Shown here in pieces: positions 2,386 to 63,898 of a DNA stretch of 64,000 nt. Under the pieces are notes generated by a model. The model did no database searches. It saw only the letters and a program-made list of their open reading frames with translations, and had not been told where the DNA came from. The translations under genes were made by a program, and so were the position numbers. The first letter of the stretch is position 1. Each line of letters opens with the position of its first letter. Location of the stretch: IMG/VR virus record IMGVR_UViG_3300013132_000019; one strand, written 5' to 3'. Origin of the DNA: a virus (Duplodnaviria; Heunggongvirae; Uroviricota; Caudoviricetes).

Positions 2386-2455
2386 AATGGGTTGATTACT
2401 TCAGTATATTCTTAGTATATTCTTAGTATATTCTTAGTATATTCTTAGTATATTT
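2386..2455. repeat. 11-bp tandem repeat (TATATTCTTAG) x5
   Basis: Direct read of cttagtatatt repeated five times, in an intergenic position. Confidence 0.8.
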
Positions 2456-2729
2456 CTCATTGGTCATTAAGGTATAATTTACGTATTATAATATATTTCA
2501 TATACCATTGTTTACCACTTATTGCCATTTTACCATATTTCTCTACCACTTTCACCCACCAGATTATTTCATTTAGCATTATACGGGTTAATTATCATAA
2601 TACTTTAAAAAATGGCACACTTGCTAATAAAAGTATAAAATGGTACCTGAGTATGGTTTATACCGAGAAAGTGTCTTAGGCTTGATTTATGGGGTTTTTA
2701 ATTACTGATTCAATGTCGTGATTCTGTCA

Positions 2730-3774: not shown

Positions 3775-4052
3775 AATATATAATATATCTGTTCACCATA
3801 TGAATCCTCACAATAGATTATGTTACCATTGGTGTCATATTCTTGTTTATACCAATATCCTTTTGAATTCTCATAATAGATTCTGTTACCATTGGTATCA
3901 TATTCTCGTTTAGACCAAAATCCATTTGAATACTCAGAATAGATTAATTTACCATTGGTATCATATTCATATTTATACCAATATCCATTTGAAGTCTCAT
4001 GATAGATTACATTACCATTGGAATCAAATTCTTTTTTAATAATTTTGCTCAT
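3771..4052 (-). CDS. YD/MORN-like repeat protein, paralog 7 (93 aa)
   Basis: Four repeats. Confidence 0.65.
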   Translation of the reverse strand: MSKIIKKEFDSNGNVIYHETSNGYWYKYEYDTNGKLIYSEYSNGFWSKREYDTNGNRIYYENSKGYWYKQEYDTNGNIIYCEDSYGEQIYYIL

Positions 4053-4408
4053 ACTATATAATATATCTGTTCACCATCTGAATCCTCAAAATAGATTTGA
4101 TTACCATTGGCGTCATATTCACGTTTATCCCAATATCCTTTTGAATTCTCATAATAGATTCTGTTACCATTGGTATCATATTCTCGTTTAGACCAAAATC
4201 CATTTGAATACTCAGAATATATTTCATTACCATTGGAATCAAATTCATATTTAGACCAATATCCATATGAATCCTCAGAATAGATTACATTACCATTGGA
4301 ATCAAATTCATATTTAAACAAATATCCATCTGAATCCTCAGAATAGATTACATTACCATTGGAATCAAATTCTTTTTTAATAATTTTGCTCATAGTGCTA
4401 AGGTACAA
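4049..4408 (-). CDS. YD/MORN-like repeat protein, paralog 8 (119 aa; the probable start is the MSKIIKK Met at 4393)
   Basis: Five repeats. Confidence 0.6.
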   Translation of the reverse strand: MYLSTMSKIIKKEFDSNGNVIYSEDSDGYLFKYEFDSNGNVIYSEDSYGYWSKYEFDSNGNEIYSEYSNGFWSKREYDTNGNRIYYENSKGYWDKREYDANGNQIYFEDSDGEQIYYIV

Positions 4409-4409
4409 A

Positions 4410-4466
4410 AAAAAATGGGAAGGTATTTGAACATTCCCATTAATTTATTTTTAAGTTGTTAACCTA
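4410..4466 (-). terminator. rho-independent terminator (AATGGGAA-loop-TTCCCATT followed by a T-run on the minus strand)
   Basis: Perfect 8-bp stem followed by T9 on the minus strand, downstream of the 4467..4709 gene. Confidence 0.55.
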
Positions 4467-4709
4467 TTAATCAAAAGCTGCTTGCATTTTTTTGGTAACT
4501 GGGTTAACTTCTTGTTGTACGTATTTGATAATGTTAGGTGTTTCGGTTGCTATTGTTCCATGTTCGCCATGTGTTACAATTGCTTTTCCGTTGGTTTTGA
4601 TTTTCATTGTACCATTACCCAAATCTTTTGCTTGAATACCATTTGCTGTTAGTTTGTGAGTGTTTGTTGATGGTTCCAATACGATTGTGTTATTTTCAAA
4701 ATTTTCCAT
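4467..4709 (-). CDS. hypothetical small protein (80 aa)
   Basis: ORF flanked by a terminator and an (ATT)n tract. Confidence 0.45.
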   Translation of the reverse strand: MENFENNTIVLEPSTNTHKLTANGIQAKDLGNGTMKIKTNGKAIVTHGEHGTIATETPNIIKYVQQEVNPVTKKMQAAFD

Positions 4710-4724
4710 GATTTTTTGTTTTTG

Positions 4725-5113
<389 letters not shown>

Positions 5114-5114
5114 A

Positions 5115-5852
5115 TTAGCTTTGTGCTGATAAGAATTTGAAGTATTGTTCTGCTGTTAATGGTACAATTTCACCTGATGGTTCAACTTCGCTATTAAGTT
5201 CCACTAAAAGCACATCACCTTGTCGTTTTATTTCCTTTATGTGAGGTATTAGGTTTTCATGAATTCTAAATGTTGAGGCAACAGCTTCGAGTGGTGAATC
5301 TTTATATTGGTCTTCAATCCATAGCCAATGTTCTTTGTTGGTTGTTGTGCACCAACATTTGAGAGCATATAGATTTTCTTCAAGTCCAAGTTTTTCACCA
5401 GACACTTCGTGTACTTCATAGATATTATCAAATTCGTGATAGCCCAAAAATTCGCCAGATTCGGAATATACTTTTTGGTTAACGTGTTTTCCATCGGTTG
5501 CAATTCTTGTTGCTCCCAATTCGTTAATCATTTCGCTTACATCTATTGACCCGAATACTGTTGCTCTGAATTGTGAGTTTTCAATTTGGAAAGCTTCACG
5601 GTATGTGAATGGTTCAACTTTATCGTATTCATTTAGAACCTTTTCAATGAATGAGTCGGTATTCCAACCAGTATTTGTTGAGGTTGTCTGTATTGGTTTA
5701 ACAAATCGTTCGATGAAACGATTTTTATTTGTGAATATACCTTTAAGGTATTTAACACCATCTGTTATTGATATGTCATTATCGAATGATTGGTTATCGA
5801 TATTGATATTGATATCTGTATTGAATTTTTTGAAGTTGAATACTTGGCTCAT
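5115..5852 (-). CDS. hypothetical protein (245 aa)
   Basis: ORF with the TATATTTG promoter box 34 nt upstream. Confidence 0.6.
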   Translation of the reverse strand: MSQVFNFKKFNTDININIDNQSFDNDISITDGVKYLKGIFTNKNRFIERFVKPIQTTSTNTGWNTDSFIEKVLNEYDKVEPFTYREAFQIENSQFRATVFGSIDVSEMINELGATRIATDGKHVNQKVYSESGEFLGYHEFDNIYEVHEVSGEKLGLEENLYALKCWCTTTNKEHWLWIEDQYKDSPLEAVASTFRIHENLIPHIKEIKRQGDVLLVELNSEVEPSGEIVPLTAEQYFKFLSAQS

Positions 5853-9720: not shown

Positions 9721-10328
9721 TTTAACACAAATTCAGCACATTTGTTGCTGTTAGGTTGAACAATTCGTTCAGGTTTACAATGTGAATCGTTAACAATGTC
9801 ATGCAACATCTGTTCGACCTCTTCTCTTGTATACAATTTCGCTTCAATCGGATGAATGGTGATTTCGTGGCGTGGGTTGACTTTAAGTTCAAGTTCATAT
9901 TTAGGAACTGTCACAATATACTCCACATCAACTTCATCAACACCACCCTTTCTACAATATTCTTTGATGAATGATTTTGGAATCAATGCGCACCCTTGTC
10001 CGTATTTATCAGAAGCAGAATGCCATAATTTATCATCAGTGGTTGCTATGATTTTATGTCTCCAATCGTTGTTTACAGCGTCTTTTTCAGCTTGATAAAT
10101 GCCTACCGATTGACCTATTCCACCTGATATGTAATACCAATCGCCTTCCTTTATCTCTGAATCATCTATGATGTAGAGGTTTTGATTTTGAAGAGACTCT
10201 TCTATTGTGGGAACTTCTCCATAAAAAATACCCTTACGTTCGTTATACTTACACAAAGCAATCTGTGATGCTTTATTCGTAGGTAGCATCACTACTTTAC
10301 ATCGTTTTGTTTCCATTGTTTTTAACAT
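9699..10328 (-). CDS. hypothetical protein (209 aa)
   Basis: ORF. Confidence 0.5.
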   Translation of the reverse strand: MLKTMETKRCKVVMLPTNKASQIALCKYNERKGIFYGEVPTIEESLQNQNLYIIDDSEIKEGDWYYISGGIGQSVGIYQAEKDAVNNDWRHKIIATTDDKLWHSASDKYGQGCALIPKSFIKEYCRKGGVDEVDVEYIVTVPKYELELKVNPRHEITIHPIEAKLYTREEVEQMLHDIVNDSHCKPERIVQPNSNKCAEFVLNWIKKRL

Positions 10329-10849
10329 TCTAAAAGTTTCTCCAAATATACGAATAATTCTTGATATCTTTCAAGATATAATCGTTCTTTTACTTTCGGA
10401 TATTCTTTTTTGTACTTATTGAACATTGATGAGTTTGTTAATAGTGAATATTTAACATTAGCTATTATATCACACAACTTAACAAATACCGCCAATTCAT
10501 TTTCTTTAAGTTCGTTAAAGTATTTTTCTGAATGACGTTCATCACGATTCTTACCTTTTTCTTCAGTACAACAGTAGATTATATCAGCAACGCCATCACC
10601 AACCTTATGTTTAATATCGTTGTAGGTTACTCTGGCGTCTTCGATAAGGTCATGACCTATGGCACCGCAAAGCACCTTAATCTGTTCATCGCGATTAAAA
10701 CCAACTTCATTATAGAATTTTTTGACTTGGTTAACTACCAAATCTAGATGGAATGAATATGGATGAATGTCACCATATTTTTGGTTGCAAACAACGTCAT
10801 GTTGATTCACTGCAAACTCTCTAAATTTTTCAAAATCGTTATAGTTCAT
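10322..10849 (-). CDS. HD-domain hydrolase of RelA/SpoT type, a candidate small alarmone ((p)ppGpp) hydrolase (175 aa)
   Basis: HPYSFHLDLV...GAIGHDLIEDARVTYNDI matches the SpoT/Mesh1 HD signature (H...HD..ED). The size fits a stand-alone small alarmone hydrolase. Confidence 0.5.
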   Translation of the reverse strand: MNYNDFEKFREFAVNQHDVVCNQKYGDIHPYSFHLDLVVNQVKKFYNEVGFNRDEQIKVLCGAIGHDLIEDARVTYNDIKHKVGDGVADIIYCCTEEKGKNRDERHSEKYFNELKENELAVFVKLCDIIANVKYSLLTNSSMFNKYKKEYPKVKERLYLERYQELFVYLEKLLEC

Positions 10850-11228
10850 CGTTAACCCAACCTTTTTTTTGTAATTTAATTAAAAACTGTCTAAGTAATT
10901 GTCTATCCTCTGTTAAGTCAATTTCACCATCCAAATCATCAAACGCTAATGGCTCATTATTTATTATTCTGATGAACCAATTCTCGTTATCTGCTATGTG
11001 TATTACTTTGGAATCTTTCACTCTCTTGTTACAATACTGTAATGACGGCATTATTAATTCATCGTAATCGTTTTCCAATACCTCAAACTCAAACAAACAA
11101 TTATCGTTTTCAAAAGTACATTTTCTTGAAAATGTCAAATCTTCATCATTAATTAGTAATGGCTCATTTTTCTCTGTTTGGTCTTCTCTTACATACCAAA
11201 TACCATTAACTTGTATTCTATCTTCCAT
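10839..11228 (-). CDS. hypothetical protein (129 aa)
   Basis: ORF. Confidence 0.5.
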   Translation of the reverse strand: MEDRIQVNGIWYVREDQTEKNEPLLINDEDLTFSRKCTFENDNCLFEFEVLENDYDELIMPSLQYCNKRVKDSKVIHIADNENWFIRIINNEPLAFDDLDGEIDLTEDRQLLRQFLIKLQKKGWVNDEL

Positions 11229-11947
11229 TATTGTTTTGGTATTAAATTATTAAAATATTCTCGTTCTTGGGTAAAAACTGGTGGTGCTATACTAACCCAT
11301 CGACTTCTCGTTGACCCATTTTTATCGTAGTTTTCTTTAACGATTAATCGACCTCTTTTAAGTTTTGGGTCAAAATCATTCCAATTAACGCCCTTTTGAA
11401 AACACATTTCTTGCATTTGATTGGTGTTTTTACCATTAAGTTCTTTATGACTGTATAAAGATTGTGCAACTGACGAGATACTATTTCTAACAGTATCTTG
11501 TTGTCTCCAAATCATGTAATTCTCAACTTCAACTGCTGTCGGAATGGTAAATACGCGACTATCAAACATTGCCAATTTTTTTGGTCTAAGTTGGTTAAAC
11601 TTAGCTGTTGCCAAACTAGCTGAAATACTCGCCATTTTTTGAACATTACCATCAAACCAAGCTGAGGTTGTTAGTTCATTGAAGTCAGTTAAAAGAATTG
11701 AAATCTCATCACTTTGAACAAATGCAAATTTGGCACCTTGAATATTTTCACATAGGTACTTTGCGGTTTCATCCATATCATTCACCAATTTCCAATCAAA
11801 TGGTCTTTCAAGACCTCTAGTGTATGTGTGAAAAGCTTTTCCGTCAATGCGTATTATCGTATAAGTCCTTCTAGGTAGAAAGGTTCTTGTTCTATTCTCA
11901 TAGAATTCCTTCATACGGTCACCCAATGAATCTTTTTTATTTCCCAT
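11228..11947 (-). CDS. Thg1-like protein: tRNA-His guanylyltransferase family 3'-5' nucleotidyltransferase (239 aa)
   Basis: RIDGKAFHTYT and QSDEISILL align with the Thg1/TLP motifs RIDGRNFHKF and QSDEYSF. The length is right for a Thg1-like protein. Confidence 0.6.
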   Translation of the reverse strand: MGNKKDSLGDRMKEFYENRTRTFLPRRTYTIIRIDGKAFHTYTRGLERPFDWKLVNDMDETAKYLCENIQGAKFAFVQSDEISILLTDFNELTTSAWFDGNVQKMASISASLATAKFNQLRPKKLAMFDSRVFTIPTAVEVENYMIWRQQDTVRNSISSVAQSLYSHKELNGKNTNQMQEMCFQKGVNWNDFDPKLKRGRLIVKENYDKNGSTRSRWVSIAPPVFTQEREYFNNLIPKQ

Positions 11948-11973
11948 TATTGTTTTTTTTTTGGTTTATGATA

Positions 11974-25564: not shown

Positions 25565-26611
25565 TTACAAAAAAACATTATCCGTTTTTTCAAAAAACCA
25601 CAATCTGGCTTTGGTTGATAATGCTGAACTAATGTCCTTTGGTTCAAAACCGTTGCCAGTTATTGTATCAAGTTCTTCTTTAACAACATCTTCAAATATC
25701 CAACGAAGATAATTACCAGTACTCTTTCGTGATATATCCATATGGTTTTCCCTAAGATAATCAAGCCCTTGATTTAACCTTGATTCAGTCAAAAAATTAT
25801 CAACCAGTGAATCTATATTGCTAACTCGTTCAATGTCAATTGGTACTTTGGTTTTGGTCTTACTGCTTTGGTGTTTCTCACCTTTAGATTTAAACCAAAA
25901 CCTAGAATCACCCCAACCTTCAGTAACACAAACAAATACCAAACCCTCACCAGTACCAGATACCCCAAAAGATTTACCAACTGGGCATTCATTCTCAACA
26001 CTATCAACGTAGTCAGAAATCAGTTCAGCCGATTCACTAACATTATTAAAATCAATGTCAATAACGAAAGTTGGGTAATCTAAAATGTTATATATCTTTT
26101 GCTCAGGAATTTTAATATTTTTTAATTCAGAGTCTTTCATCCATAAACCATCAATCTTAATCGCAAAAATAACAAACATTTTTTCAAGCTCGTTCAGGGC
26201 AACACCTTTTTGAATATTACCGCCACACCATTCACCATAGACTTGAATAATCTTATAATCAGAAACGCTACCGTTCCGTTTAATTAAATCGAATATTTTA
26301 TTAACATCGATGGTTGTAACAAATGTAGCAAACCCAGCATTATCTTTTAATGGCGTTATTATATTTGTTCTGGATTGAACTTGAGTTTTGATGTTACCAT
26401 GCTCATTTTTCAATCGAATTATTGACGCATTCGTACCATGTAATTTGATACTGCCACGAAATTTTAACGTTGGTAGAATGCCTTCAGTCTCATCATATAT
26501 TGGTTCACCACTCTCAGTTGTACCTCTAAATCTAATACGATGATTAACCTCCTTAATTACAGTTCTGAGCTGTTCAATTGAAGGGAATTTATAAACTTTT
26601 TCAGTCATCAT
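25565..26611 (-). CDS. RNA ligase, Rnl2 family (348 aa)
   Basis: Motif I KLHGTN corresponds to T4 Rnl2 KIHGTN. YGEWCGGNIQKG resembles Rnl2 FGEFAGPGIQK. Lys-rich motif V near KSKGEKHQSSK. Confidence 0.65.
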   Translation of the reverse strand: MMTEKVYKFPSIEQLRTVIKEVNHRIRFRGTTESGEPIYDETEGILPTLKFRGSIKLHGTNASIIRLKNEHGNIKTQVQSRTNIITPLKDNAGFATFVTTIDVNKIFDLIKRNGSVSDYKIIQVYGEWCGGNIQKGVALNELEKMFVIFAIKIDGLWMKDSELKNIKIPEQKIYNILDYPTFVIDIDFNNVSESAELISDYVDSVENECPVGKSFGVSGTGEGLVFVCVTEGWGDSRFWFKSKGEKHQSSKTKTKVPIDIERVSNIDSLVDNFLTESRLNQGLDYLRENHMDISRKSTGNYLRWIFEDVVKEELDTITGNGFEPKDISSALSTKARLWFFEKTDNVFL

Positions 26612-48171: not shown

Positions 48172-48235
48172 AGATTGGGGTGGGAGTCGAACCCACCTAT
48201 GCCAACCAATCTTGAAGGATTCGAACCCCCGTAAA
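48172..48235 (-). ncRNA. tRNA-like minihelix / pseudo-tRNA fragments (acceptor AGATTGG/CCAATCT plus GTGGG-TTCGACT-CCCAC T-arm, and a second GGGGG-TTCGAAT motif)
   Basis: Two T-arm-like motifs with no complete cloverleaf. Confidence 0.3.
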
Positions 48236-48284
48236 ACAAAGCGGAACCGAAAACTGACAACCATTCAGTTTTAGTTTTAAGCTC

Positions 48285-48387
48285 GTAGTCAGGACAGGAT
48301 TCGAACCTATATGAAGTATCATCTAATGACCTTATTCTTTTACCCACAATGTAGGGTATTATGCGTCTACCAATTCCGCCACCTGAC
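48285..48387 (-). tRNA. tRNA-Leu-like gene (Leu-type D-arm GGTGGCGGAATTGGTAGACGC), 103 nt, with about 18 nt more than a normal class II tRNA; anticodon unresolved; possible small intron or insert
   Basis: Perfect acceptor AGTCAGG/CCTGACT and T-arm ATAGG-TTCGAAT-CCTGT. The candidate anticodon hairpin TACCC-TACATTGT-GGGTA has an 8-nt loop. A separate ATGA-TACT-TCAT hairpin sits where a variable arm would be. Confidence 0.4.
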
Positions 48388-48589
48388 TATATTCGGGACG
48401 GGAGTAAGCCGCTCCCGTTTGTCCCTACTTCTTTACTGTCGTTTGAGTTTTGAGTTTAGGTCTGAAAACTCCTTCGGTAAGGAAAAGGACCACAGTTTTC
48501 TGGAAAACTTACCTAAACCCCTTTATACAACATTTGTTTCATCTCGTTAAACAATAGTCTCATAGGACGAGGACTAAAAAACGGCTTGT

Positions 48590-48719
48590 GGTCAGTAAAG
48601 GATTCGAACCTTTATAAGATGAGGTGTGTTTTTCTCTCAGGGCTTATTACGCGTTACTCACCCGTCTTGATTACCGACACTTGTTACCAATCTGTGTTTC
48701 GCCAATACACCGACTGACC
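48590..48719 (-). tRNA. tRNA-like gene (130 nt) whose ~50-nt internal insert is derived from the 16S rRNA 5' domain (GACGGGTGAGTAACGCGTAATAAGCCCTGAGAGAAA...ACACCTCAT)
   Basis: Acceptor GGTCAGT/ACTGACC, D-arm GTGT-ATTGGCGAA-ACAC and T-arm AAAGG-TTCGAAT-CCTTT are all perfect. The insert contains an exact 18-mer of the universally conserved bacterial 16S region GACGGGTGAGTAACGCGT. Confidence 0.4.
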
Positions 48720-48850: not shown

Positions 48851-48980
48851 TAGTCAGGACAGGATTCGAACCTGTACAGTGTAGTTATATTTTCCCGATA
48901 CCTTTGGAAACTTAATTCCTCAATCTTGTGTAATCTACACCATTATCTTTTTTAGCGTCTACCAATTCCGCCACCTGACT
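48851..48980 (-). tRNA. second tRNA-Leu-like gene (same acceptor, D-arm and T-arm as 48285..48387), 130 nt, with a ~45-nt internal insert; anticodon unresolved
   Basis: The exon-like ends are identical to the first copy. The middle segment differs and contains a GTGTA-GAT-TACAC hairpin. Confidence 0.4.
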
Positions 48981-50399: not shown

Positions 50400-50560
50400 A
50401 TTTATTATAAATATGTTAAAAAAAAAAGAAGGGGAGCCATTACGGTCTTTCTTGTGATTCAATGCGCAATCACCACAATAACAATCGGTCTTCGAGAGGT
50501 CGGTGAACTACCCACCCACGCCAGAGGCGATGGGTTGGGCTTCATGAGTCAGCACTCCCA
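50400..50560 (-). ncRNA. candidate omega-RNA (TnpB guide RNA scaffold) overlapping the tnpB 3' end and the IS right end
   Basis: An exceptionally GC-rich, hairpin-rich ~150 nt (for example CCCACCCACGCCAGAGGCGATGGGTTGGG), in the position where IS605-family omega-RNAs are encoded. Confidence 0.35.
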
Positions 50561-51785
50561 CTAACGTGGGCAGTTCGTCATGATTTTTTCTGTCAGTTCC
50601 TGACAAAATATTTCTTAAACTAAAATTTTTAATATTAATTGCCGCATTTATATCCCTATCATGTTCAGTATTACAGTTAACACAAGTCCATTCTCTATCT
50701 TTTAACGTTAGTTCTTTATTAATATAACCACAGTTAGAACATGTCTTTGATGATGGTTCAAATCTACCTATCTTAAGTATATTTGTTCCATACCATTCAG
50801 ACTTATATTCTAACATATTAACAAAAGTTGACCAACTTACATCTGATATTGCTTGTGCTAAATTATGATTTTTAATCATATTACTTACAGCAAGATTTTC
50901 TAAACTGATTGTTTGGTTCTCACGAACCAGTTTAGAAGATATTTTATGCAAATAATCTTTTCTTTTATTTGTTACTTTTTCATGTAACTTTGCTAATTTT
51001 TGTTTTGTTCTTTTTCCTTTATTTTTACTATACTTACTCTGTATGTATTTTAATTTAGATTGTGCTTTACGTAAGTGCTTAGGGTTATCAAATACTTCAC
51101 CATCTGATGTTATTACGAAATCTTTAATTCCTAAGTCTATACCAATAGTAGTTTCTTCTTTTATCTTAGATTTAGGTTTACATTGTTCACCAGTTTCACA
51201 AAGAATGGAAACAAAATACTTACCTGTGGGTGTTTTAGATATTGTTGCTTGTCTTATTTCACCTTTAAGTGGTCTATGTAATATAATATCTAACCCATTT
51301 TTCTTTGTGAATTTAGGTATAATTAATTTATTATTTTCTACTTTTACTCTTTGTGGTATGTTAAAACTACCACCATTAGATTTCTTTTTATACTTAGGAA
51401 ATGAATTTTGACCTTTAAAAAAAGCGGTATATGCTTTATCTAAATTAGTTATACTTTGCTGTAATGATTGTGAATTAATTTCCTTTAACCAAGACAATTC
51501 TTCTTTCAATTCTTTTAGTTGTGAATGCAGTTCAAAACAAGAAAGATTATGTTTATTGCCAGCATAAGCTATTTGTTTGGTTTCCAACGCTAAATTATAT
51601 ATAAACCTAGAAGCACCAATATGCTTATTCAGAAGAACTTTTTGTTCTTCAGTCGGATTAAGTCTATATTTAAAAGCTTTCAACATCATATATAAATATG
51701 TAGAAAAATTAAAAAGTTTAAAGAAAATATAAAATTTATTTACATTTATTGAATTAATGTTGTTATTGTCGCTTTCATCCCACCC
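50471..51785 (-). mobile_element. TnpB-only IS200/IS605-family (IS1341-like) insertion element, about 1.3 kb, with a short inverted motif at the ends
   Basis: tnpB runs 50508..51689. CACAATAACAATCG at 50474-50487 and its inverse CGACAATAACAAC at 51770-51782 flank it. A GC-rich segment overlaps the tnpB 3' end. Confidence 0.55.
50508..51689 (-). CDS. tnpB: TnpB (IS605 OrfB-family RuvC-like RNA-guided endonuclease), 393 aa
   Basis: N-terminal FKYRLNPT. RuvC-I IGIDLGIKDF. Zinc finger CSNCG...CVNC. RuvC-III DRDINAAINI. Confidence 0.8.
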   Translation of the reverse strand: MMLKAFKYRLNPTEEQKVLLNKHIGASRFIYNLALETKQIAYAGNKHNLSCFELHSQLKELKEELSWLKEINSQSLQQSITNLDKAYTAFFKGQNSFPKYKKKSNGGSFNIPQRVKVENNKLIIPKFTKKNGLDIILHRPLKGEIRQATISKTPTGKYFVSILCETGEQCKPKSKIKEETTIGIDLGIKDFVITSDGEVFDNPKHLRKAQSKLKYIQSKYSKNKGKRTKQKLAKLHEKVTNKRKDYLHKISSKLVRENQTISLENLAVSNMIKNHNLAQAISDVSWSTFVNMLEYKSEWYGTNILKIGRFEPSSKTCSNCGYINKELTLKDREWTCVNCNTEHDRDINAAINIKNFSLRNILSGTDRKNHDELPTLVGVLTHEAQPIASGVGG

Positions 51786-53792: not shown

Positions 53793-53811
53793 AATAATAA
53801 ATATTTTAAAG

Positions 53812-53884
53812 TGTAGCGTATCGGCCTCGAACCGATGACTCCGCCTTGCAAGGGCAGTATTATAGCCAGCTTAACTAACACCAC
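53812..53884 (-). tRNA. tRNA-Ala (anticodon UGC) with a G3:U70 pair
   Basis: Acceptor GTGGTGT/ACGCTAC, anticodon arm CTGCC-CTTGCAA-GGCGG, T-arm ATCGG-TTCGAGG-CCGAT. Confidence 0.6.
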
Positions 53885-53909
53885 AATAAGTGCCAAAAAT
53901 ATGTCTAGG

Positions 53910-53982
53910 CGGACGCCACGGGGGTTGAACCCGCAATCTCAGCCGTGACAGGGCCGTATGTTACCAACAACACCTCGCGTCC
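53910..53982 (-). tRNA. tRNA-Asp (anticodon GUC)
   Basis: Anticodon arm CGGCC-CTGTCAC-GGCTG, T-arm GCGGG-TTCAACC-CCCGT. Confidence 0.55.
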
Positions 53983-54035
53983 GTTAATATCCGTCTTTCC
54001 AGATTGTCAAAAGGCTTTAAAACTCTATATTTTCA

Positions 54036-54109
54036 GTAGTCCGTATGGGATTTGAACCCATGACTCCGCTGTGAAAGAGCGGTGACTTAAACCACTTGTC
54101 GAACGGACC
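54036..54109 (-). tRNA. tRNA-Glu (anticodon UUC)
   Basis: Acceptor GGTCCGT/ACGGACT, anticodon arm CCGCT-CTTTCAC-AGCGG, T-arm ATGGG-TTCAAAT-CCCAT. Confidence 0.6.
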
Positions 54110-54115
54110 GTTTTG

Positions 54116-54188
54116 TGTGATGGGTTGGAATCGAACCAACATTATCGCTTTTTCAGAGCGACACCTTGACCAACTTGGTAACCACCAC
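54116..54188 (-). tRNA. tRNA-Phe (anticodon GAA)
   Basis: Acceptor GTGGTGG/CCATCAC, anticodon arm TCGCT-CTGAAAA-AGCGA, T-arm GTTGG-TTCGATT-CCAAC. Confidence 0.6.
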
Positions 54189-54203
54189 ATACATCAAAAA
54201 AAA

Positions 54204-54232
54204 AACCCTTCGGATATCCGAAGGGTTTCTTA
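54204..54232 (-). terminator. rho-independent terminator (perfect palindrome AACCCTTCGGATATCCGAAGGGTT followed by T10 on the minus strand)
   Basis: Direct read. Separates the leader cassette from tRNA cluster 3. Confidence 0.65.
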
Positions 54233-54258
54233 TCGTTTTTTATTTGACTTTTAGTTAC

Positions 54259-54351
54259 GACAAATCCTTCGGATTGTAAACACAATCATCCTCCTCCGCT
54301 GCGAATGCGGCAAAGTTGAAAGCAAATATGTCGTTAAAAGTTTTCATAGTT
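54259..54351 (-). CDS. conserved leader small ORF (30 codons, MKTFNDIFAFNFAAFAAEEDDCVYNPKDLS) with embedded hairpins; may be non-coding
   Basis: The leader CCATATTTAATTAATAAGAGAAAAAACTATGAAAACT is conserved with the 45680 and 57888 loci. Confidence 0.3.
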
Positions 54352-54377
54352 TTTTCTCTTATTAATTAAATATGGTG

Positions 54378-54385
54378 CAAATATA
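54378..54385 (-). promoter_or_regulatory. -7 box TATATTTG with a CTTGCATAGTTA -33-like element; promoter of the leader cassette for tRNA cluster 3
   Basis: On the minus strand: CTTGCATAGTTAATAAGTCTTTTGTATATTTG. Confidence 0.5.
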
Positions 54386-54431
54386 CAAAAGACTTATTAA
54401 CTATGCAAGTTTTTTCAAAAAAAAAATGAAA

Positions 54432-55577
54432 TTAGTTTTTTGTCCCGTAGAAAGATGGTTTTGGACCACCTAATTTGATGTCCTGTAATAACTGATATTG
54501 TCTTTGCGTTAGAAATATGAACTCATCCTTACCAGCTTTATTAATCCAACCACTTAAAACCTTTTCACCACTTCTATTGGTTGTGTTCTTTTTTAAACCT
54601 TTTAGATAACCAACAGATATTCGTTTCTTTTCATCGTTTTCAGTTATGGTGACTGATTTATCGTATGCTTGAGTTTGTATATCATTCAATTTACCCATAA
54701 ATTCATTTCGTCTTAAAAGTTTAAACACAATGTTTGTTGGTGAAAACTCACCACCAGTTTCTAAACCAGATTTTCGCATTTTTCTGATTCGTTCTTTCAG
54801 TTTGGTAATATCATCAATTACACCGTCTAAGTCATCACCTTTTTTAAAATCCTTTTCGATGTCTTCAATACGTTTGATTATTGTATCGTATTTTTTCTCG
54901 ATTGTTGGTCTATCCAATTCAACTATGTCTTTTATTGGTTCTTTAACCCAAGCATTATCAGTAATTGAGTAGACACCTGTTGAATGATGTGGTTCGTCTT
55001 TATCCTGTAGATAAAGTTCGACATCAAAACCTTTAACCGTTATGTCATGGTCAGAATTCCATTTTCTGGTTTTGGTATCCAATAAATCTTTAATCAATTC
55101 AGGGTCACCTTCAAGTTGGTTCACATCAAATACTATATGTAGGTCAATATCTGAATACTTTGACCAATTATAATTCGCCAAACTACCAGTCATTGTTACA
55201 TCATCATATGTGAAACCAAGTTCCAATGAATCCCAATAATCGTTTGCGATTTTTAATAATACTTTACGTATGTCTTCTTTAATTTTACCACCATCCCATA
55301 TTTCAGAATTAAGGGTGTCGTTCATTTTGAATGTGGATAGGTCAACCTCATTCAATATTTCTTCTAAGTGTTTAGCTTTATTGATTTCAATCGCGGCCAG
55401 CTGTTTAAGTGCTTTCTCTTTAGTGTCGTGAGTACCTAATCGTTTACCACCCTTTTTTGGATATACAACATACTTACCATTTTGTTTTTTAATGGTTTCG
55501 TTAAGTTGTTCACGTAAAGATTTTCTAATATCTTGCCTCATAACAATAAATATGGTCAGAAGTAGACAACATTCCAA
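54432..55577 (-). CDS. polymerase-beta-superfamily nucleotidyltransferase-domain protein (381 aa; the start is probably the internal MRQDIRK)
   Basis: TMTGSLANYNWSKYSDIDLHIVFD fits the GS-x(9-13)-DhD NTase motif. The rest is uncharacterised. Confidence 0.45.
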   Translation of the reverse strand: MECCLLLTIFIVMRQDIRKSLREQLNETIKKQNGKYVVYPKKGGKRLGTHDTKEKALKQLAAIEINKAKHLEEILNEVDLSTFKMNDTLNSEIWDGGKIKEDIRKVLLKIANDYWDSLELGFTYDDVTMTGSLANYNWSKYSDIDLHIVFDVNQLEGDPELIKDLLDTKTRKWNSDHDITVKGFDVELYLQDKDEPHHSTGVYSITDNAWVKEPIKDIVELDRPTIEKKYDTIIKRIEDIEKDFKKGDDLDGVIDDITKLKERIRKMRKSGLETGGEFSPTNIVFKLLRRNEFMGKLNDIQTQAYDKSVTITENDEKKRISVGYLKGLKKNTTNRSGEKVLSGWINKAGKDEFIFLTQRQYQLLQDIKLGGPKPSFYGTKN

Positions 55578-56305
55578 TTACCATCAAAATCTTCAACCAA
55601 ACAAGAAAGGTTTTCCACCCAATCACCACTATTCAGATATTCAATATCATTAATGTTCTTTTTCTCTGGTTGATGTATATGTCCACAGATAACACCATCA
55701 TAACCTTTTTTCTTAGCGACTGACGTTATATAATTTTCAAAATCCGTTACAAATTTAACTGCTTGCTTAACACTATCTTTAATCATTTTACTCACAGACA
55801 AATACGGCAAACCTCTCCACTTTCTCCATTCATTGTACCAATAGTTGAACCATAGTGCCAAATCATAACCTATTGAACCTATTTTGGCTAACCAACCCAT
55901 TTTAGTTATGAAAACATCAAAGATGTCACCATGTGTAATCAAATAGCGGTTCCCGTTTGCACCGATATAATCCATTTCCTTTAAAACCGTTATACCATTG
56001 ATTTTTGACTCAAACGGTAAAAAATCATCTAAAAAGTCATCATGGTTACCTCTAACCCAATAAACCTCACTTTCTTTTTGTGCTAACCTGAAAAACTTCT
56101 TAATGCACTTGGTGTGCTTATCCTTCCATTTACTTCCCCGTTTTAAAGCCCAACCATCGATTATATCGCCATTCAATATTAATGTCTCAGCTTTATTTTG
56201 ATTTAAAAATTTTACAACTTCTTCCGCTTTTGATTCTCTAATACCTAAGTGAATGTCACTTAAAACTATTGTTCTCCATTCAGTGGTTTTTTTACTCATG
56301 ACCAA
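55556..56305 (-). CDS. metallophosphoesterase (249 aa)
   Basis: LSDIHLG, GDIIDGW, GNHD and GHIH motifs. Confidence 0.65.
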   Translation of the reverse strand: MVMSKKTTEWRTIVLSDIHLGIRESKAEEVVKFLNQNKAETLILNGDIIDGWALKRGSKWKDKHTKCIKKFFRLAQKESEVYWVRGNHDDFLDDFLPFESKINGITVLKEMDYIGANGNRYLITHGDIFDVFITKMGWLAKIGSIGYDLALWFNYWYNEWRKWRGLPYLSVSKMIKDSVKQAVKFVTDFENYITSVAKKKGYDGVICGHIHQPEKKNINDIEYLNSGDWVENLSCLVEDFDGNWNVVYF

Positions 56306-56991
56306 TAACCAATATCTTTTCTAAACTCGTCATCATTCTTATATCTGTTTCGCATTATGCGAATGAATTCTTTCATTAAACCAAAATAACCCATCTTTTG
56401 GAAACGCCTATCATCAGTATATACACCCGTTTTAATTAGAATCCAAAACTTGCGTCTTTTAATCTTTCGTGATAAATGATAATCCTCGGCAAAATGCAAA
56501 GTCTCATCAAACCCACCCAACTCAAAGAACTTCTTTTTATCCACAGCCATAAAACAACCTGTGGAAAATGGCATACCTTCAACAACCGAAAATAGTTGTA
56601 TGAAATTACACACTTTATAAATATTATGAGCAATTGTGTTATTACGACATTTAAGTTTCGTTGTAACCATATGATAACCTTTTTTTAACTTCTTAACAGC
56701 CTTGTTAATCAATTTTTTATCATCAAAGGTTATATCCGCATCAATGAATATAATATAATCACCCTTTGCCTTTTTCGCACCATTGTTCCTAGCTTGAGAA
56801 ACATTACCACCTTTAACAATCTTAACATCAGGATAATGGTTTTTGATTATCTGTCTAGTATTATCTGTTGATGAGTCTGCAACAATAACCTCAAATGGAT
56901 ATTTGATGTCGGAATTGTATATTGAATCTAAAATACCATCTATGTAATTCTCCTCATTATATGATGGTATCACTATTGAAACTTTGGTCAT
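56296..56991 (-). CDS. family 2 glycosyltransferase (231 aa)
   Basis: VSIVIPSYNEE...VADSSTDNT...FIDADITF (DxD). Confidence 0.65.
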   Translation of the reverse strand: MTKVSIVIPSYNEENYIDGILDSIYNSDIKYPFEVIVADSSTDNTRQIIKNHYPDVKIVKGGNVSQARNNGAKKAKGDYIIFIDADITFDDKKLINKAVKKLKKGYHMVTTKLKCRNNTIAHNIYKVCNFIQLFSVVEGMPFSTGCFMAVDKKKFFELGGFDETLHFAEDYHLSRKIKRRKFWILIKTGVYTDDRRFQKMGYFGLMKEFIRIMRNRYKNDDEFRKDIGYWS

Positions 56992-57051
56992 TTGCGAACT
57001 TTATAATAAATAGTTTAGTAATTCTACAAATGTACTAAAATTTAATTAATG

Positions 57052-57129
57052 TGGGCAAGACGGGAATCGAACCCGTATATCCTTTACTTTTGAGGTAAAG
57101 AGGCTTCACCAGCTTTCCATCACTCGCCC
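57052..57129 (-). tRNA. tRNA with a Leu anticodon (CAA) but class-I architecture (short variable arm, enlarged D-loop)
   Basis: Acceptor GGGCGAG/CTTGCCC, anticodon arm TTTAC-CTCAAAA-GTAAA, T-arm ACGGG-TTCGATT-CCCGT, D-loop containing AAAGCTGGTGAAG. Confidence 0.5.
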
Positions 57130-57139
57130 AAATTTTTAG

Positions 57140-57217
57140 TAGGGAAGACGGGAGTCGAACCCGTATATCCTTTGATTTTAAGTCAAAGAGGCTTCACCAG
57201 CTTTCCATCACTTCCCC
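57140..57217 (-). tRNA. paralogous tRNA with a Leu anticodon (UAA), same atypical architecture
   Basis: Acceptor GGGGAAG/CTTCCCT, anticodon arm TTTGA-CTTAAAA-TCAAA, T-arm ACGGG-TTCGACT-CCCGT. Confidence 0.5.
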
Positions 57218-57447
57218 TTAACTACCTTATCAAAAAAGCCTTTTGGCATATTAGCGTTCATCGTCATAAACTCTTCTTCTGTTTGAATACCTTCGTTCGC
57301 TTCCCACATACTTTTACAGTATTCTATAAAGGCATTACCATGGTTTTTGGTCATGTATTTGAAGTCATACTTGAAGTTGTTTACGTCAGAATCATAATCC
57401 ATTGTTTCAATGAACTTATCCCATGCAACTTTTTTAATTTCACGCAT
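57208..57447 (-). CDS. hypothetical protein (79 aa)
   Basis: ORF whose 3' end overlaps the 5' end of the adjacent tRNA by a few nt. The start may lie later. Confidence 0.35.
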   Translation of the reverse strand: MREIKKVAWDKFIETMDYDSDVNNFKYDFKYMTKNHGNAFIEYCKSMWEANEGIQTEEEFMTMNANMPKGFFDKVVKGK

Positions 57448-57472
57448 AATTAATTTATTAACTCATTATCTG

Positions 57473-57550
57473 TACGGGTAGAGGGAGTCGAACCCCCAAA
57501 TCAGCAGTTCCTAAGACTGCTCGGCTTCACCAAACTTTCCGCATACCCGC
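57473..57550 (-). tRNA. third paralog with a Leu anticodon (UAG), same atypical architecture
   Basis: Acceptor GCGGGTA/TACCCGT, D-stem CGG/CCG with a 14-nt loop, anticodon arm GCAGT-CTTAGGA-ACTGC, T-arm GGGGG-TTCGACT-CCCTC. Confidence 0.5.
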
Positions 57551-57559
57551 ATTTTTTTG

Positions 57560-57631
57560 TACCCCAGACTGGAATCGAACCAGTTCTCCCGCCATGTAAA
57601 AACGGAGCGCTAACCATTACACCACTGGGGC
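57560..57631 (-). tRNA. tRNA-Val (anticodon UAC)
   Basis: Acceptor GCCCCAG/CTGGGGT, anticodon arm CCGTT-TTTACAT-GGCGG, T-arm ACTGG-TTCGATT-CCAGT. Confidence 0.55.
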
Positions 57632-57751
57632 TTACTTGAGAAGATGGTCAGATTCGAACTGACGTAAACATGATTTGCAGTCATGTGGCTAATTCCAACT
57701 CACCCACACCTTCAATTATTTTATTTCAAAGAACCGATAAAAAACAAAAAA

Positions 57752-57785
57752 CCCGACTCATATTGCTATGGTCGGGTTACCCTTT
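57752..57785 (-). terminator. rho-independent terminator (AACCCGAC-loop-GTCGGGTT followed by TTTTGTTTTTT on the minus strand)
   Basis: Direct read. Separates the leader cassette from tRNA cluster 4. Confidence 0.6.
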
Positions 57786-57804
57786 TTGTGTTATTAACAA
57801 TTCA

Positions 57805-57888
57805 TCAGTTAACACAATAGTCCGACCATCTCGGTTCCACGACCAAGAGACATAGGTTTAAGACTAAAGTGTTTACTACTGTATTCAT
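57805..57888 (-). CDS. conserved leader small ORF (27 codons, MNTVVNTLVLNLCLLVVEPRWSDYCVN); may be non-coding
   Basis: The leader CTATTTAATTAATAATAGAAAAAACTATGAATACA is conserved with the other cassettes. Confidence 0.3.
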   Translation of the reverse strand: MNTVVNTLVLNLCLLVVEPRWSDYCVN

Positions 57889-58083
57889 AGTTTTTTCTAT
57901 TATTAATTAAATAGTTGTTAATTTACAAAAAGTTATTCTTTATATTAAAAATGTAAATGAAACAGATTCTGATAACTTCAGGTTATCACTCTTTGATTTG
58001 GTCAGTGTGACTGGCACACCCCAAATCTCTCCTTTCATAAATAAAAATTTGTTGCTGTAACGAATCTTTATTCATTTACAGTA

Positions 58084-58165: not shown

Positions 58166-58480
58166 ATGGGAACAGTATATCTTTTAGGTGAGTTTGTGGA
58201 TAATCCGAGATACAAAATTGGAATAACAAAAAACAATGTTAATTCCCGTTTGAAGGAATTGCAAACAGGTAATCCAAATGAAATAATCCTAATTAACCAA
58301 TACGAATCTGAGAATTATAGAAAGATTGAGGGGATGCTACATAGAAAATTCTTTATGAATCGAGCTAAAGGTGAATGGTTTGATTTAACCAATGAACAAG
58401 TTTTTTCGTTTCTTGATGAAGCAAAAAAAGCTGATGAACTCATCAGCTTTTTAAAGGAGAACAATTGTTTCTACGACTAA
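58166..58480 (+). CDS. T5orf172 (GIY-YIG-like, MUG113) domain protein (104 aa)
   Basis: VYLLGEF...YKIGITKNNVNSRLKELQTGNP signature. Plus strand. Confidence 0.55.
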   Translation: MGTVYLLGEFVDNPRYKIGITKNNVNSRLKELQTGNPNEIILINQYESENYRKIEGMLHRKFFMNRAKGEWFDLTNEQVFSFLDEAKKADELISFLKENNCFYD

Positions 58481-59490
58481 TCTTTGTTAACCACGCAAGT
58501 TCCGTTATAATAATAGTCAAACTCTTCTAACATATTATCAGTACCAAACTTTATTGTGATTTCTGTGAAATCGCCAAATTGGTCATTAATATAGTCTTTA
58601 AAACCACCAATTGCCTGACCCAATTCTTTACCTTCAAGACCAAATTTATCGATGATGTGCTTACCGTTGAATAATACGGATGCATATTTGCTTTTTGACA
58701 CCTCATATTCAATTCTAGCGATTTCATCAAAGATTTTTGCGTCTGGAAAGAAATAATCGATTCTTCTATATAGTTCAATATCAGAAAGATTATGTTCGTA
58801 CTTATGGTTATCATCAGCAACATTCTTATCAATCCAATCTAAAAACGCCATATAGGATACTCTTTTAAGGTTTCTTTCGCGATTAATTCGATTAAGTTCA
58901 TCCAACTGGAATTTGGTCCAATTGAAATATGGTGATTCAGAAATGAATTGAAATATCTCATCCAAAGTTTCAAAACCTTTTAACCATCTGTTAAAATCCA
59001 ACCCTAAGAACTCATAAATCTTTTCTTGGTCTTTGCTGACCATTATCTTATGTTTGGTGTCCTTATAGTAATATGTTATCCAAAAACCTTCAGCACCATA
59101 TCTACCACCCATATGATGAGCCAATCTTCCCAGATAATTGCCGAGGTCGTTGAATGAAAGGTAGCTTAAGTATGAATCAAAATGGTCTTCAGAAGTGGTT
59201 ATAAGGTCAATCTGAAATTCTTTATAATCAAATGACCAACAGTTACCATTGTGATATATCTCATTTGGTTTAAACTGTTCGGTTATCAATTCTCTTATAT
59301 TACCAGAATAACCTTTCATTGAAACCAAAATATCCATATCACCAAAACTTTCTTTTGTATGATAATATCTTGGTATTTCGGCTTTGTAAAAAAACCTTCG
59401 GATTTTCCTAAGAACCTCAGAAGTGAGTTTGATATACTCTTCCTTTTGGTAACGTCTTGTATACGCTGTCTTTATTGCTCTGCCACCCAT
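58477..59490 (-). CDS. polymerase-beta-type nucleotidyltransferase-domain protein (337 aa)
   Basis: KESFGDMDILV fits hG[GS]...DhD. The C-terminal region is uncharacterised. Confidence 0.45.
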   Translation of the reverse strand: MGGRAIKTAYTRRYQKEEYIKLTSEVLRKIRRFFYKAEIPRYYHTKESFGDMDILVSMKGYSGNIRELITEQFKPNEIYHNGNCWSFDYKEFQIDLITTSEDHFDSYLSYLSFNDLGNYLGRLAHHMGGRYGAEGFWITYYYKDTKHKIMVSKDQEKIYEFLGLDFNRWLKGFETLDEIFQFISESPYFNWTKFQLDELNRINRERNLKRVSYMAFLDWIDKNVADDNHKYEHNLSDIELYRRIDYFFPDAKIFDEIARIEYEVSKSKYASVLFNGKHIIDKFGLEGKELGQAIGGFKDYINDQFGDFTEITIKFGTDNMLEEFDYYYNGTCVVNKD

Positions 59491-62743: not shown

Positions 62744-63898
62744 CTATGTTAGTAGGGCATATAGTTTTTTGTTATCCATTTGACGTAGATAATCTGGTAT
62801 GGTTTTAACTTTACCATCGTTTAATCCGAAGAATAAACCAGTGAAAGATTTTAAATCATTTGAATCTGCTATATCAAAAACCTTATTAGCAAATAATTTT
62901 CTTTCTTCTTTGGTTATATCTTTTGGTCTAAATTGGTTTAAAGCTTCCCATGATGAGTATAACTTATCAGTTAATTCATTATAATTTTGATGTAATGACC
63001 TAACCTCGTCTTCTCTTTCACGGAATGTCGCAACATATTCTTCAATCTCATTAGTTTTTATGACTTCCATGATATGGTGGGCTTCTGTCCCATTTTTTAA
63101 ATGGTGTACAGCGACATATGCTGGATTTTTAACCTTAACTCTGTTAAAATTACCATCAACAACAACATAACCTTCATTATCATAGGGCATCTGTTCGAAT
63201 GTCTTTATAAGATAATCAAAATTACCTTTATTAAGTTCATGTTCTTCAACATATGGAACACCTAACCAATCAGCTATTTGAATCACATCATTCTTTGAGT
63301 ATTCATCTAACGTTTTTAAATCCCTAACAGTTAACAACGTAACACTAGAAGTTGCATGTGGTGTTACTACTATGTTATACGGTGTTGTTAACTCAAACAC
63401 ATAGGTATTATCGACATCTAACGCTTCAGTGAAATTATCATAATCTGTAAAGTTATAAATGGTTTCCCAAAACAAATCGTTGAATGATGTGTTAAGTCTA
63501 TTATTAACCTCACCTTCACCTTCAGCGGTACCAGTAGTGGCAGCAAACCAACGATTTTTATGCCAATCATAATATAAGTTAATGCAGGTACCATCCAACT
63601 TAGTTTGGATTCTGGCCGTTGACCAATCTATTGTAGCGGCATGACCTTCAGCTGAATTATAAAACTTGGTTAGACCAAGACACATGACCTTCCATGTATC
63701 TTTTTCTAATACAATACCTCTACACTCTTCAACCTCTCTATTACCAAATGGAGATTCAATCTGGTCATATTTAATACATATTTTTTTATCATACACACGA
63801 ATCTTAAGTTTGAAGTCGTTTAACGCTTTACTTAATCCGTGTTCTTTTATGTATTTAACTATAGCTAATTCCATTGTATCTTTTAATTTAGGATACAA
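62744..63898 (-). CDS. RNA ligase, Rnl1-like (ATP-dependent nucleotidyltransferase motif I KLDGT); the track start is TTG at 63898, and the ATG at 63874 (MELAIV) is more likely
   Basis: TKLDGTCINLYY resembles Rnl1/ligase motif I KxDG. Length 376-384 aa, similar to T4 Rnl1. A TATATTTG box lies at 63896-63903. Confidence 0.5.
   Translation of the reverse strand: MYPKLKDTMELAIVKYIKEHGLSKALNDFKLKIRVYDKKICIKYDQIESPFGNREVEECRGIVLEKDTWKVMCLGLTKFYNSAEGHAATIDWSTARIQTKLDGTCINLYYDWHKNRWFAATTGTAEGEGEVNNRLNTSFNDLFWETIYNFTDYDNFTEALDVDNTYVFELTTPYNIVVTPHATSSVTLLTVRDLKTLDEYSKNDVIQIADWLGVPYVEEHELNKGNFDYLIKTFEQMPYDNEGYVVVDGNFNRVKVKNPAYVAVHHLKNGTEAHHIMEVIKTNEIEEYVATFREREDEVRSLHQNYNELTDKLYSSWEALNQFRPKDITKEERKLFANKVFDIADSNDLKSFTGLFFGLNDGKVKTIPDYLRQMDNKKLYALLT

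Follow-up and report, generated by a model that had tools for sequence, protein, structure and literature searches.

Outside organelles, a long variable arm is the textbook hallmark of tRNA-Leu. The arm is an identity element for seryl-tRNA synthetase (SerRS), leucyl-tRNA synthetase (LeuRS) ignores the anticodon, and the Escherichia coli LeuRS tolerates deletion of the arm from tRNALeu. For bacterial LeuRS the arm is at most an affinity element, its deletion from Aquifex aeolicus tRNALeu mainly lowering affinity (PMC2377443). The closest described precedent for a leucine tRNA without it is the type I tRNALeu(CAA) of Streptomyces coelicolor, which has a Leu anticodon and a 5-nt variable loop, occurs beside class II tRNA-Leu and is charged by the S. 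coelicolor LeuRS, a 5-nt loop including position 48 being the minimum for good charging (PMC6614811). In the literature we found this one Streptomyces isoacceptor and no other bacterial exception to the long-armed tRNA-Leu, and, as far as our incomplete coverage reaches, no description of class I tRNA-Leu in phages. Here we analyse three short tRNA-Leu genes with the anticodons CAA, UAA and UAG from a 64-kb stretch of DNA (the window) of an uncultivated T5-like phage, IMG/VR record IMGVR_UViG_3300013132_000019.

All three leucine genes matched the Rfam family RF00005 (gathering score 29) over model positions 1-71 of 71 (coordinates and scores in Table 1), and the Rfam alignment together with direct reading gave each of them a 7-bp acceptor stem, a 5-bp T stem and A73. 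The D arm combines a stem of 2-3 bp with an enlarged loop of 13-14 nt containing GGUGAAGCC, the anticodon stem consists of 5 bp plus a 26-44 pair, and the 7-nt anticodon loops (CUCAAAA, CUUAAAA and CUUAGGA) carry U33 and a purine at position 37. Bacterial class II tRNA-Leu has a long variable arm of more than 10 nt that forms a stem-loop; here the variable region between anticodon and T stems comprises 6 nt in every gene and 5-6 nt in the homologues, with no helix predicted, so that the shape is that of class I. Nor do the genes resemble allo-tRNAs, which show an 8/4 or 9/3 split and a long arm (PMC5389517), as their split is 7/5 with full covariation and their loop is short. Individually they differ in that the CAA gene has a G1-C72 and the UAA gene a G1.U72 pair, and that the UAG gene has a regular 3-bp D stem (C10-G25, G11-C24, G12-C23). 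Of the CCA end C74 alone is encoded in all three. Each leucine gene has one copy of the D-loop motif GGTGAAGCC, and the window contains no further copy (three in all; 0.15 expected by chance; 0 of 100 shuffles reach three).

Owing to an extra or mismatched nucleotide in their D stem, the CAA and UAA genes were trimmed at the 5' end by ARAGORN, which called them as 69 nt and put the anticodon at position 28. Rfam alignment, direct reading and ARAGORN nonetheless agree on CAA, UAA and UAG, indicating that the anticodon frame of the initial annotation was correct; its description of three Leu-anticodon tRNAs with a short variable arm and an enlarged D loop is likewise borne out by the full-length Rfam matches and the 6-nt loops. 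For genome annotation this means that ARAGORN mis-models two of the three genes and that isotype classifiers expecting a class II tRNA-Leu may mislabel such tRNAs.

Homologues were gathered along three routes: the neighbouring 337-aa protein led to the large metagenomic phage contigs L126 and L128, both with the tRNA order Cys-Val-Leu, a motif derived from the window and L128 led to seven metagenome contigs and one IMG/VR contig, and a looser motif yielded three more viral contigs. A covariance model (R1) built on ten sequences produced 19 matches at E < 1e-12, 15 of them distinct, from six sources, the window plus five metagenomic contigs of related phages. In the alignment of these 15 sequences 97.1% of the cells pair and 17 of the 21 pairs show changes on both sides, which none of 500 shuffles equalled, and pairing drops to 44-52% in slid-partner controls. 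As an alignment based on a covariance model leans towards that model, but MAFFT misaligned the 5' halves of divergent members, we cross-checked the result with RNAalifold on the same alignment without supplying the model structure. Three of the four arms were recovered (acceptor stem, T arm and an anticodon stem of 6 bp), with nothing predicted in the variable region. The 26-44 pair covaries as well (AU 7, CG 7, GC 1).

Conservation points in the same direction. L130, L133 and L134, with flanks that share 83-84% identity with the window, match its UAG gene at 78 of 78 positions. Within the window the CAA and UAA copies agree at 68 of 78 positions, and all stem differences among the ten differing sites keep pairing (three double compensatory changes and two GU/GC-type changes). 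Chance matches and pseudogenes are thus ruled out by the covariation and the fully conserved UAG copy, and the comparison shows the three leucine genes to be real tRNA genes whose class I cloverleaf is maintained by purifying selection. The variable loop has 5 nt in the homologues of L128, L131 and L132, with U48 conserved. A G1.U72 wobble tops the acceptor stem in 11 of the 15 short tRNA-Leu, including the UAA and UAG genes of the window; among the class II Leu and the Val tRNAs that were read in this phage group, several show the same wobble (e.g. window 57560-57631).

A blastn search of 50,697 phage records returned no nucleotide relative of the locus, the tRNAs matching no isolate beyond the T arm, and tblastn with the neighbouring 337-aa protein gave no isolate above 35% identity, which leaves the locus without a cultured model. 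Scanning IMG/VR with a 15-base motif resulted in chance matches in coding DNA alone, and no genuine match came from a stricter version in which GGTGAAGCC was obligatory. A scan with a strict motif across 185,579 species, each represented by one genome, revealed no cellular copy of the short family, a weak negative given the strictness of the pattern; four Sphingomonadaceae matches from that scan were rejected as ARAGORN did not call them as tRNAs.

We then compared the family with what is known of leucine identity. The recognition elements of E. coli LeuRS are A73, A14, A15-U48, G18G19-U55C56 and U54-A58 (PMC6614811). The family alignment shows no variation at A14, G18G19, U54U55C56 and A58 and at least 90% conservation of A15 and U48, and A73 is invariant in 15 of 15 distinct sequences, so that every listed element outside the arm is present at the sequence level, with the tertiary pairing predicted. 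The proposal of the initial annotation that identity elements are altered is not supported by this set, the arm being no identity determinant for bacterial LeuRS. The anticodon loops of the UUR readers (UAA, CAA) contain A36A37A38 and that of the CUN reader (UAG) contains G36G37, which is the isoacceptor pattern of bacterial tRNA-Leu. Among the 47 short (at most 79 nt) tRNA-Leu called by ARAGORN in the collected loci (designated by L numbers) the anticodons are UAA (17), UAG (17), CAA (12) and GAG (1). One tRNA body thus occurs with the whole leucine anticodon set, arguing for an anticodon-independent synthetase, i.e. LeuRS; SerRS is unlikely as there is no long arm, and alanyl-tRNA synthetase (AlaRS) is unlikely as there is no G3.U70 pair.

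The phage uses TTA for 37% of its leucine codons, followed by TTG (28%), CTT (18%), CTA (10%), CTG (5%) and CTC (2%), UUA and UUG together accounting for 65%. The UAA, CAA and UAG tRNAs together can read all six. When the NAMPT protein of the phage was aligned with human NAMPT, 20 of 36 aligned Leu codons fell on Leu and 8 more on Ile or Val, with Leu codons of all six kinds falling mostly on Leu. As far as this alignment reports on the code, it shows that leucine codons mean leucine in the phage, and a mis-sense tRNA reading them would therefore be harmful. Suppressor or recoding tRNAs are not what these genes look like, since their anticodons are sense Leu anticodons and the codons concerned align with Leu in NAMPT. 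Overall, the initial annotation's view of a phage-specific, paralogous leucine-decoding set with class I architecture is upheld, and the set is conserved in related phages, with the short family turning up again in many large phages of aquatic origin.

Both likenesses and differences emerge from comparison with known leucine tRNAs. The 5-nt loop minimum of S. coelicolor matches the 5-6 nt of the phage family with its conserved U48. However, Streptomyces has one chromosomal isoacceptor in one actinomycete lineage, whereas the phage carries the UAA, CAA and UAG set, joined by GAG in a relative; the phage tRNAs, unlike the Streptomyces one, have a D loop that is enlarged and class II-like, and their 26-44 pair covaries; and charging in Streptomyces relies on a special leucine-specific domain with A73 unread, whereas A73 is invariant in the phage family. 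Animal mitochondrial tRNA-Leu is also of class I, its variable loop being short, and has A73 (PMC6614811), but differs in origin and is served by a dedicated mitochondrial LeuRS, whereas the phage tRNAs keep the canonical G18G19/UUC elbow. The D arm is of the class II type: its stem has 3 bp, position 13-22 is left unpaired, and the large loop contains A14, A15 and G18G19. With the class II tRNA-Leu of related phages (e.g. L126, L128) they share the anticodons, A73, A14, A15-U48, G18G19, the 3-bp D stem with unpaired 13-22 and a frequent G1.U72; they differ in lacking the variable stem-loop and in a D loop that is 2-3 nt longer (13-14 versus 11 nt). Class II and short tRNA-Leu co-exist in L126, L128, L142, L147, L149, L151, L152 and L157, whereas ARAGORN and Rfam revealed no class II tRNA-Leu in roughly 71 kb of the phage studied here.

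Several short tRNA-Leu look like intermediates (Table 1). Two have a variable loop of 5 nt together with a D arm typical of class II tRNA-Leu, an 81-nt tRNA-Leu retains an 11-nt stub of the arm, and the D stem of a third short type is an ordinary one of 4 bp. Arm loss thus seems to have occurred more than once, as judged from these intermediates rather than from a demonstrated phylogeny. Class I tRNA-Leu as such is known from Streptomyces and mitochondria; what is new is a phage-borne tRNA-Leu lineage that fails the class II hallmark and has a D-arm signature of its own. A conserved, widespread phage lineage with a full class I Leu set would mean that the arm is repeatedly dispensable in nature, and its natural variants offer material for mapping what LeuRS reads.

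Taking these observations together, we favour, with a probability of roughly two thirds, the interpretation that the three genes encode functional leucine isoacceptors of a phage-borne lineage that has lost the variable arm and kept a class II-style D arm. The short tRNA-Leu would be co-transcribed with adjacent genes of the minus strand and processed by enzymes of the host, leucylated by the anticodon-blind LeuRS of the host via A73 and the D/T-loop elbow, and would then boost decoding of the dominant UUA/UUG codons and of CUN. Arm loss would be possible because bacterial LeuRS does not need the arm, while a phage tRNA-Ser would keep it because SerRS does; the tRNA-Ser(GCU) of the same phage does have a normal long arm (89 nt). 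That gene lies on L161, a contig 100% identical to the window over 5909 nt, which extends the view 7.4 kb past the right end. The host is assigned solely by protein similarity to Flavobacteriia phages, the A1 DNA-transfer protein being 43-45% identical to its homologues in Maribacter and Flavobacterium phages.

A number of points weigh against host-charged, working leucine tRNAs. The LeuRS of E. coli was unable to leucylate the type I tRNALeu of Streptomyces, the ability being mapped to the special leucine-specific domain (PMC6614811), and the competence of the host LeuRS is therefore an assumption. Codon supply alone is no full explanation, because in L128, L142, L149 and L157 short tRNA-Leu are retained next to long ones with the same anticodon. 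Weakness of the D stem shows in a bulged or mismatched nucleotide in the CAA and UAA copies and in one pair that is unpaired in 7 of 15 sequences. Single-sequence folds are marginal relative to shuffles (z -1.35 to -2.30), and minimum free energy folds are no clean cloverleaves. Finally, the view of the phage covers about 71 kb of the source contig Ga0172373_10000165 (100,004 bp), whose first 64 kb are the window, and as loci were gathered by motif or by the truncated LeuRS described below, the counts of 47 short and 26 long tRNA-Leu are biased and no population estimate.

The failure of E. coli LeuRS also bears on the idea that the short tRNA-Leu are substrates of a phage-encoded LeuRS, forming with it a partly host-independent pair that the host enzyme charges poorly or not at all. 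Relatives do encode such an enzyme: L126 has a 424-aa bacterial-type LeuRS fragment 2 kb from its tRNA-Leu cluster (leuS_bact, E = 1.2e-120), and homologues with 52-66% identity are present in 11 further viral contigs of 52-508 kb and in LR745206.1, the viral contigs with the enzyme ranging overall from 31 to 508 kb. These proteins of about 420 aa have HIGH and KMSKS motifs and lack the CP1 editing, leucine-specific and C-terminal domains; their best PDB match is the naturally CP1-less LeuRS of Mycoplasma mobile (3ziu, of which the match to the L126 protein covers residues 35-547 of 637). They usually lie within or beside tRNA-Leu clusters, in L142 embedded in a Leu cluster that contains the window's own short family, and short tRNA-Leu are found within about 15 kb of the mini-LeuRS in L126, L147, L149, L151, L152 and L157. 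LR745206.1, a published 635-kb record labelled uncultured phage, has short Leu(UAA), Leu(UAG) and Leu(CAA) genes and mixes short and long tRNA-Leu beside its LeuRS of about 420 aa. In the 64-kb window, however, tblastn found no LeuRS homologue, and there is no aminoacyl-tRNA synthetase among the genes with Pfam matches in the next 7.4 kb, which makes a dedicated synthetase a minority explanation for this phage. The charging ability of the mini-LeuRS is itself doubtful because the missing C-terminal domain is the one described in PMC3561953 as contacting tRNA tertiary base pairs; also missing is the leucine-specific domain that gave type I charging in Streptomyces, and contigs with the mini-LeuRS also carry normal class II tRNA-Leu. 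We thus regard a dedicated pair as unlikely here, although the relatives point to a compact LeuRS/tRNA-Leu system in huge phages, and, LeuRS being anticodon-blind, the short tRNA-Leu and the 420-aa LeuRS could serve as orthogonal-pair material for genetic-code expansion.

The co-existence of short and long isoacceptors with the same anticodon would also be expected if the class I shape were a counter-defence, as the initial annotation had suggested, making the tRNAs invisible to a nuclease or effector, deployed by host or phage, that recognises the class II body or long arm of cellular tRNA-Leu, and so allowing leucine decoding to outlast a depletion of tRNAs. The phage has a tRNA-repair-type toolkit for such a conflict: besides two RNA ligases, one of them of the T4 Rnl1 family, the surroundings of the tRNA clusters encode an NTP_transf_2 nucleotidyltransferase, metallophosphatases, an AAA_33 kinase, a HAD phosphatase and a PolyA_pol/CCA-adding-enzyme family protein, the genes for the kinase, a metallophosphatase, the HAD and the PolyA_pol/CCA-enzyme family proteins lying just past the window's end. 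tRNA blocks are gained and lost between phages of about 80% identity, as expected of accessory arms-race genes, anticodon-less tRNA-Leu-like RNAs in the same genomes are potential decoys, and evasion of tRNA-targeting defences by phage tRNAs is an established idea (PMC10264068). Yet our literature searches yielded no defence nuclease that specifically targets the body of tRNA-Leu or its variable arm, known escapes work via changes in the anticodon loop, which is canonical in the short tRNA-Leu, and counter-defence does not predict the long arms that these phages attach to tRNAs such as those for His, Cys and Val. A role in nuclease escape therefore appears quite improbable. The remaining possibility is that the tRNAs are charged with another amino acid or act outside translation, as recoding tRNAs, decoys or decaying pseudogenes. 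They do lack the defining feature of bacterial tRNA-Leu, the D stem is weak, ARAGORN mis-models two genes, and the best match of R1 in the window outside the family is tRNA-Phe. Decay, however, is excluded by the covariation and the UAG copy, the family has the anticodons UAA, CAA, UAG and GAG and no others, a set that anticodon-reading synthetases could not serve, neither the AlaRS-type G3.U70 pair nor an arm for SerRS is present, and with Leu codons of every box aligning with Leu in NAMPT, mis-sense decoding would damage phage proteins. We consider this possibility highly improbable and retain working, host-charged leucine tRNAs as the preferred interpretation.

The window contains a second set of unusual genes, three tRNA-like genes at 48.3-49.0 kb, which the initial annotation had described as class II Leu genes with inserts. 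This is partly correct: two of the three have a class II tRNA-Leu-type D arm (GUGGCGGAAUUGGUAGACGC). Rfam scored 37.4 and 32.1 bits with insertions of 33 and 69 nt in the anticodon arm, and in all three genes this arm is replaced by 33-69+ nt of other structure. As no normal Leu anticodon loop is readable in any of them, they are, as read, not usable Leu decoders. Similar genes are present in L131, L121, L132 and L142, a class II tRNA-Leu D arm being found in several of the whole set and the replacements ranging from an 8-nt loop, UACAUUGU, and a 6-bp stem with a GUGG tetraloop (L131) to the 33-69+ nt inserts. Because LeuRS ignores the anticodon, such RNAs might still be charged, or they might act as decoys. 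Downstream of the odd genes we observed two T-arm/acceptor-like minihelix fragments, e.g. GAUUGG...GGUGGGUUCGACUCCCACC CCAAUC, with weak Rfam matches resembling the 3' end of tmRNA (15.1 and 11.1 bits versus a gathering score of 47).

Normally class I tRNAs of these phages show the reverse anomaly: His, Cys, Val, Gln, Ile, Asn, Thr, Met and Arg tRNAs occur with long arms at 82-90 nt, among them a tRNA-His of the phage itself (Table 1).

A wider and, in our view, doubtful interpretation combines these elements into a semi-autonomous leucine-decoding module of large aquatic phages, probably infecting Bacteroidota, that would consist of class I-shaped tRNA-Leu, anticodon-less tRNA-Leu-like RNAs and, in many lineages, the stripped LeuRS of about 420 aa. 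If so, leucine decoding by the phage would be uncoupled from the class II tRNA-Leu pool of the host, and the purpose would be either to survive host- or phage-inflicted destruction of tRNA-Leu or to provide a private substrate for a phage enzyme; the arms gained, conversely, by the tRNAs for His, Cys, Val, Ile, Asn, Thr, Met and Gln would then be a further part of this redesign of tRNA identity.

The G+C content of the window is about 32%, and practically all genes lie on the minus strand. It contains 14 tRNA genes according to ARAGORN, 15 according to Rfam at the gathering threshold and 16 in a more permissive scan, clustered near 44.8-45.4, 48.3-48.7, 53.8-54.2 and 57.05-57.71 kb. Tuned to the direction of transcription, the last cluster reads Cys(GCA), Val(UAC), Leu(UAG), a 79-aa open reading frame (ORF) with no Pfam match, Leu(UAA) and Leu(CAA). 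Clusters of T5-like and huge phages are similar in being co-directional arrays of at least 20 tRNA genes beside RNA ligase and kinase/phosphatase genes. The Cys-Val-Leu order is conserved in L121, L126, L128 and L131-L137, and L128 has a small ORF at the position of the 79-aa ORF. L123, about 80% identical in shared genes, is without the block that spans the Cys-Val-Leu tRNAs, blastn jumping from window position 57944 to 55367. It also lacks the Phe-Glu-Asp-Ala cluster (window 53805-54523), and ARAGORN found no tRNA genes in its 20 kb. By gene content, this comparison shows the Cys-Val-Leu block to be an accessory cassette, and within this phage group tRNA cassettes seem to come and go.

Table 1. 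Positions of the short tRNA-Leu genes and of other features in the window and in related loci
Feature	Location	Strand	Details
tRNA-Leu(CAA)	window 57052-57129	minus	78 nt; class I shape; 6-nt variable loop; Rfam RF00005 39.8 bits; R1 89.9 bits; ARAGORN anticodon CAA
tRNA-Leu(UAA)	window 57140-57217	minus	78 nt; class I shape; Rfam RF00005 43.5 bits; R1 94.5 bits; ARAGORN anticodon UAA
tRNA-Leu(UAG)	window 57473-57550	minus	78 nt; class I shape; Rfam RF00005 42.3 bits; ARAGORN anticodon UAG
79-aa ORF	window 57208-57447	minus	between UAG and UAA genes; stop codon within first 10 nt of tRNA-Leu(UAA)
tRNA-Val(UAC) and tRNA-Cys(GCA)	window 57559-57713	minus	ordinary class I; head of cluster; ARAGORN, Rfam
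Accessory block	window 55368-57943	minus	Cys-Val-Leu tRNAs, 79-aa ORF, family-2 glycosyltransferase, most of metallophosphatase gene
337-aa neighbour protein	window 58477-59490		conserved
tRNA-like genes	window 48286-48388, 48589-48719, 48851-48980	minus	acceptor, D and T arms; anticodon arm non-canonical or replaced
Minihelix fragments	window 48178-48262	minus	T-arm/acceptor-like
tRNA-like genes with replaced anticodon arm	L131 8658-8745; L121 about 11843-11966; L132 12594-12692; L142 2712-2808
Class II Leu D arm with 5-nt loop	L149 7952-8026; L152 3395-3468		apparent intermediates
81-nt tRNA-Leu with 11-nt stub arm	L149 8266-8346		apparent intermediate
Short tRNA-Leu, ordinary 4-bp D stem	L126 14875-14949; L142 2816-2892; L144 312-387; L157 9082-9157		third short type
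Long-armed tRNA-His	L161 2872-2958		this phage; just past window position 64000
Long-armed tRNAs	L121 11662-11837; L126 13666-13752; L128 15672-15756; L131 9431-9515; L132 12483-12567; L147 15562-15646; L149 7176-7259
Long-armed tRNAs	L151 7055-7140, 8285-8371, 8900-8984, 9271-9355, 9530-9615
Long-armed tRNAs	L157 8056-8145, 8399-8485, 27962-28043
LeuRS fragment, 424 aa	L126 16798-18072 (= L145)
Mini-LeuRS copies	L142 1211-2473; L146-L156 at 10001-11280; L157 24832-26091 (= LR745206.1 404831-406090)
RNA ligase, Rnl1 family (T4 Rnl1)	window 62744-63898
Second RNA ligase	window 25565-26611
Further RNA-repair-type genes	window 54432-55577, 55556-56305; L161 1-1062, 4530-7493
Transposase gene	window 50508-51689		between tRNA clusters; PHROG phrog_506, E = 6e-127
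Transposase-related sequence	L130 2706-3088		beside Val/Leu tRNA cluster
Transposase-related sequence	L132 14026-14129		at the end of L132; 92% identity
Paralogous ORF array	window about 1140-5115		ORFs of about 114 aa
GOLLD RNA	L122 13880-14301		Rfam RF02032, 294 bits

The conserved 337-aa neighbour of the cassette has no Pfam match, and its sole family match is PHROG phrog_24943, annotated 'DNA polymerase'. A transposase gene lies between the tRNA clusters of the window, and related sequence is found in L130 and L132, pointing to a mobile element that travels between the tRNA regions of this phage group. Off-diagonal blastn matches of L158 revealed an array of paralogous ORFs with 75-90% nucleotide identity near the left end of the window. 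A GOLLD RNA is present on L122, an IMG/VR contig that shares the window's metallophosphatase at 53% amino acid identity.

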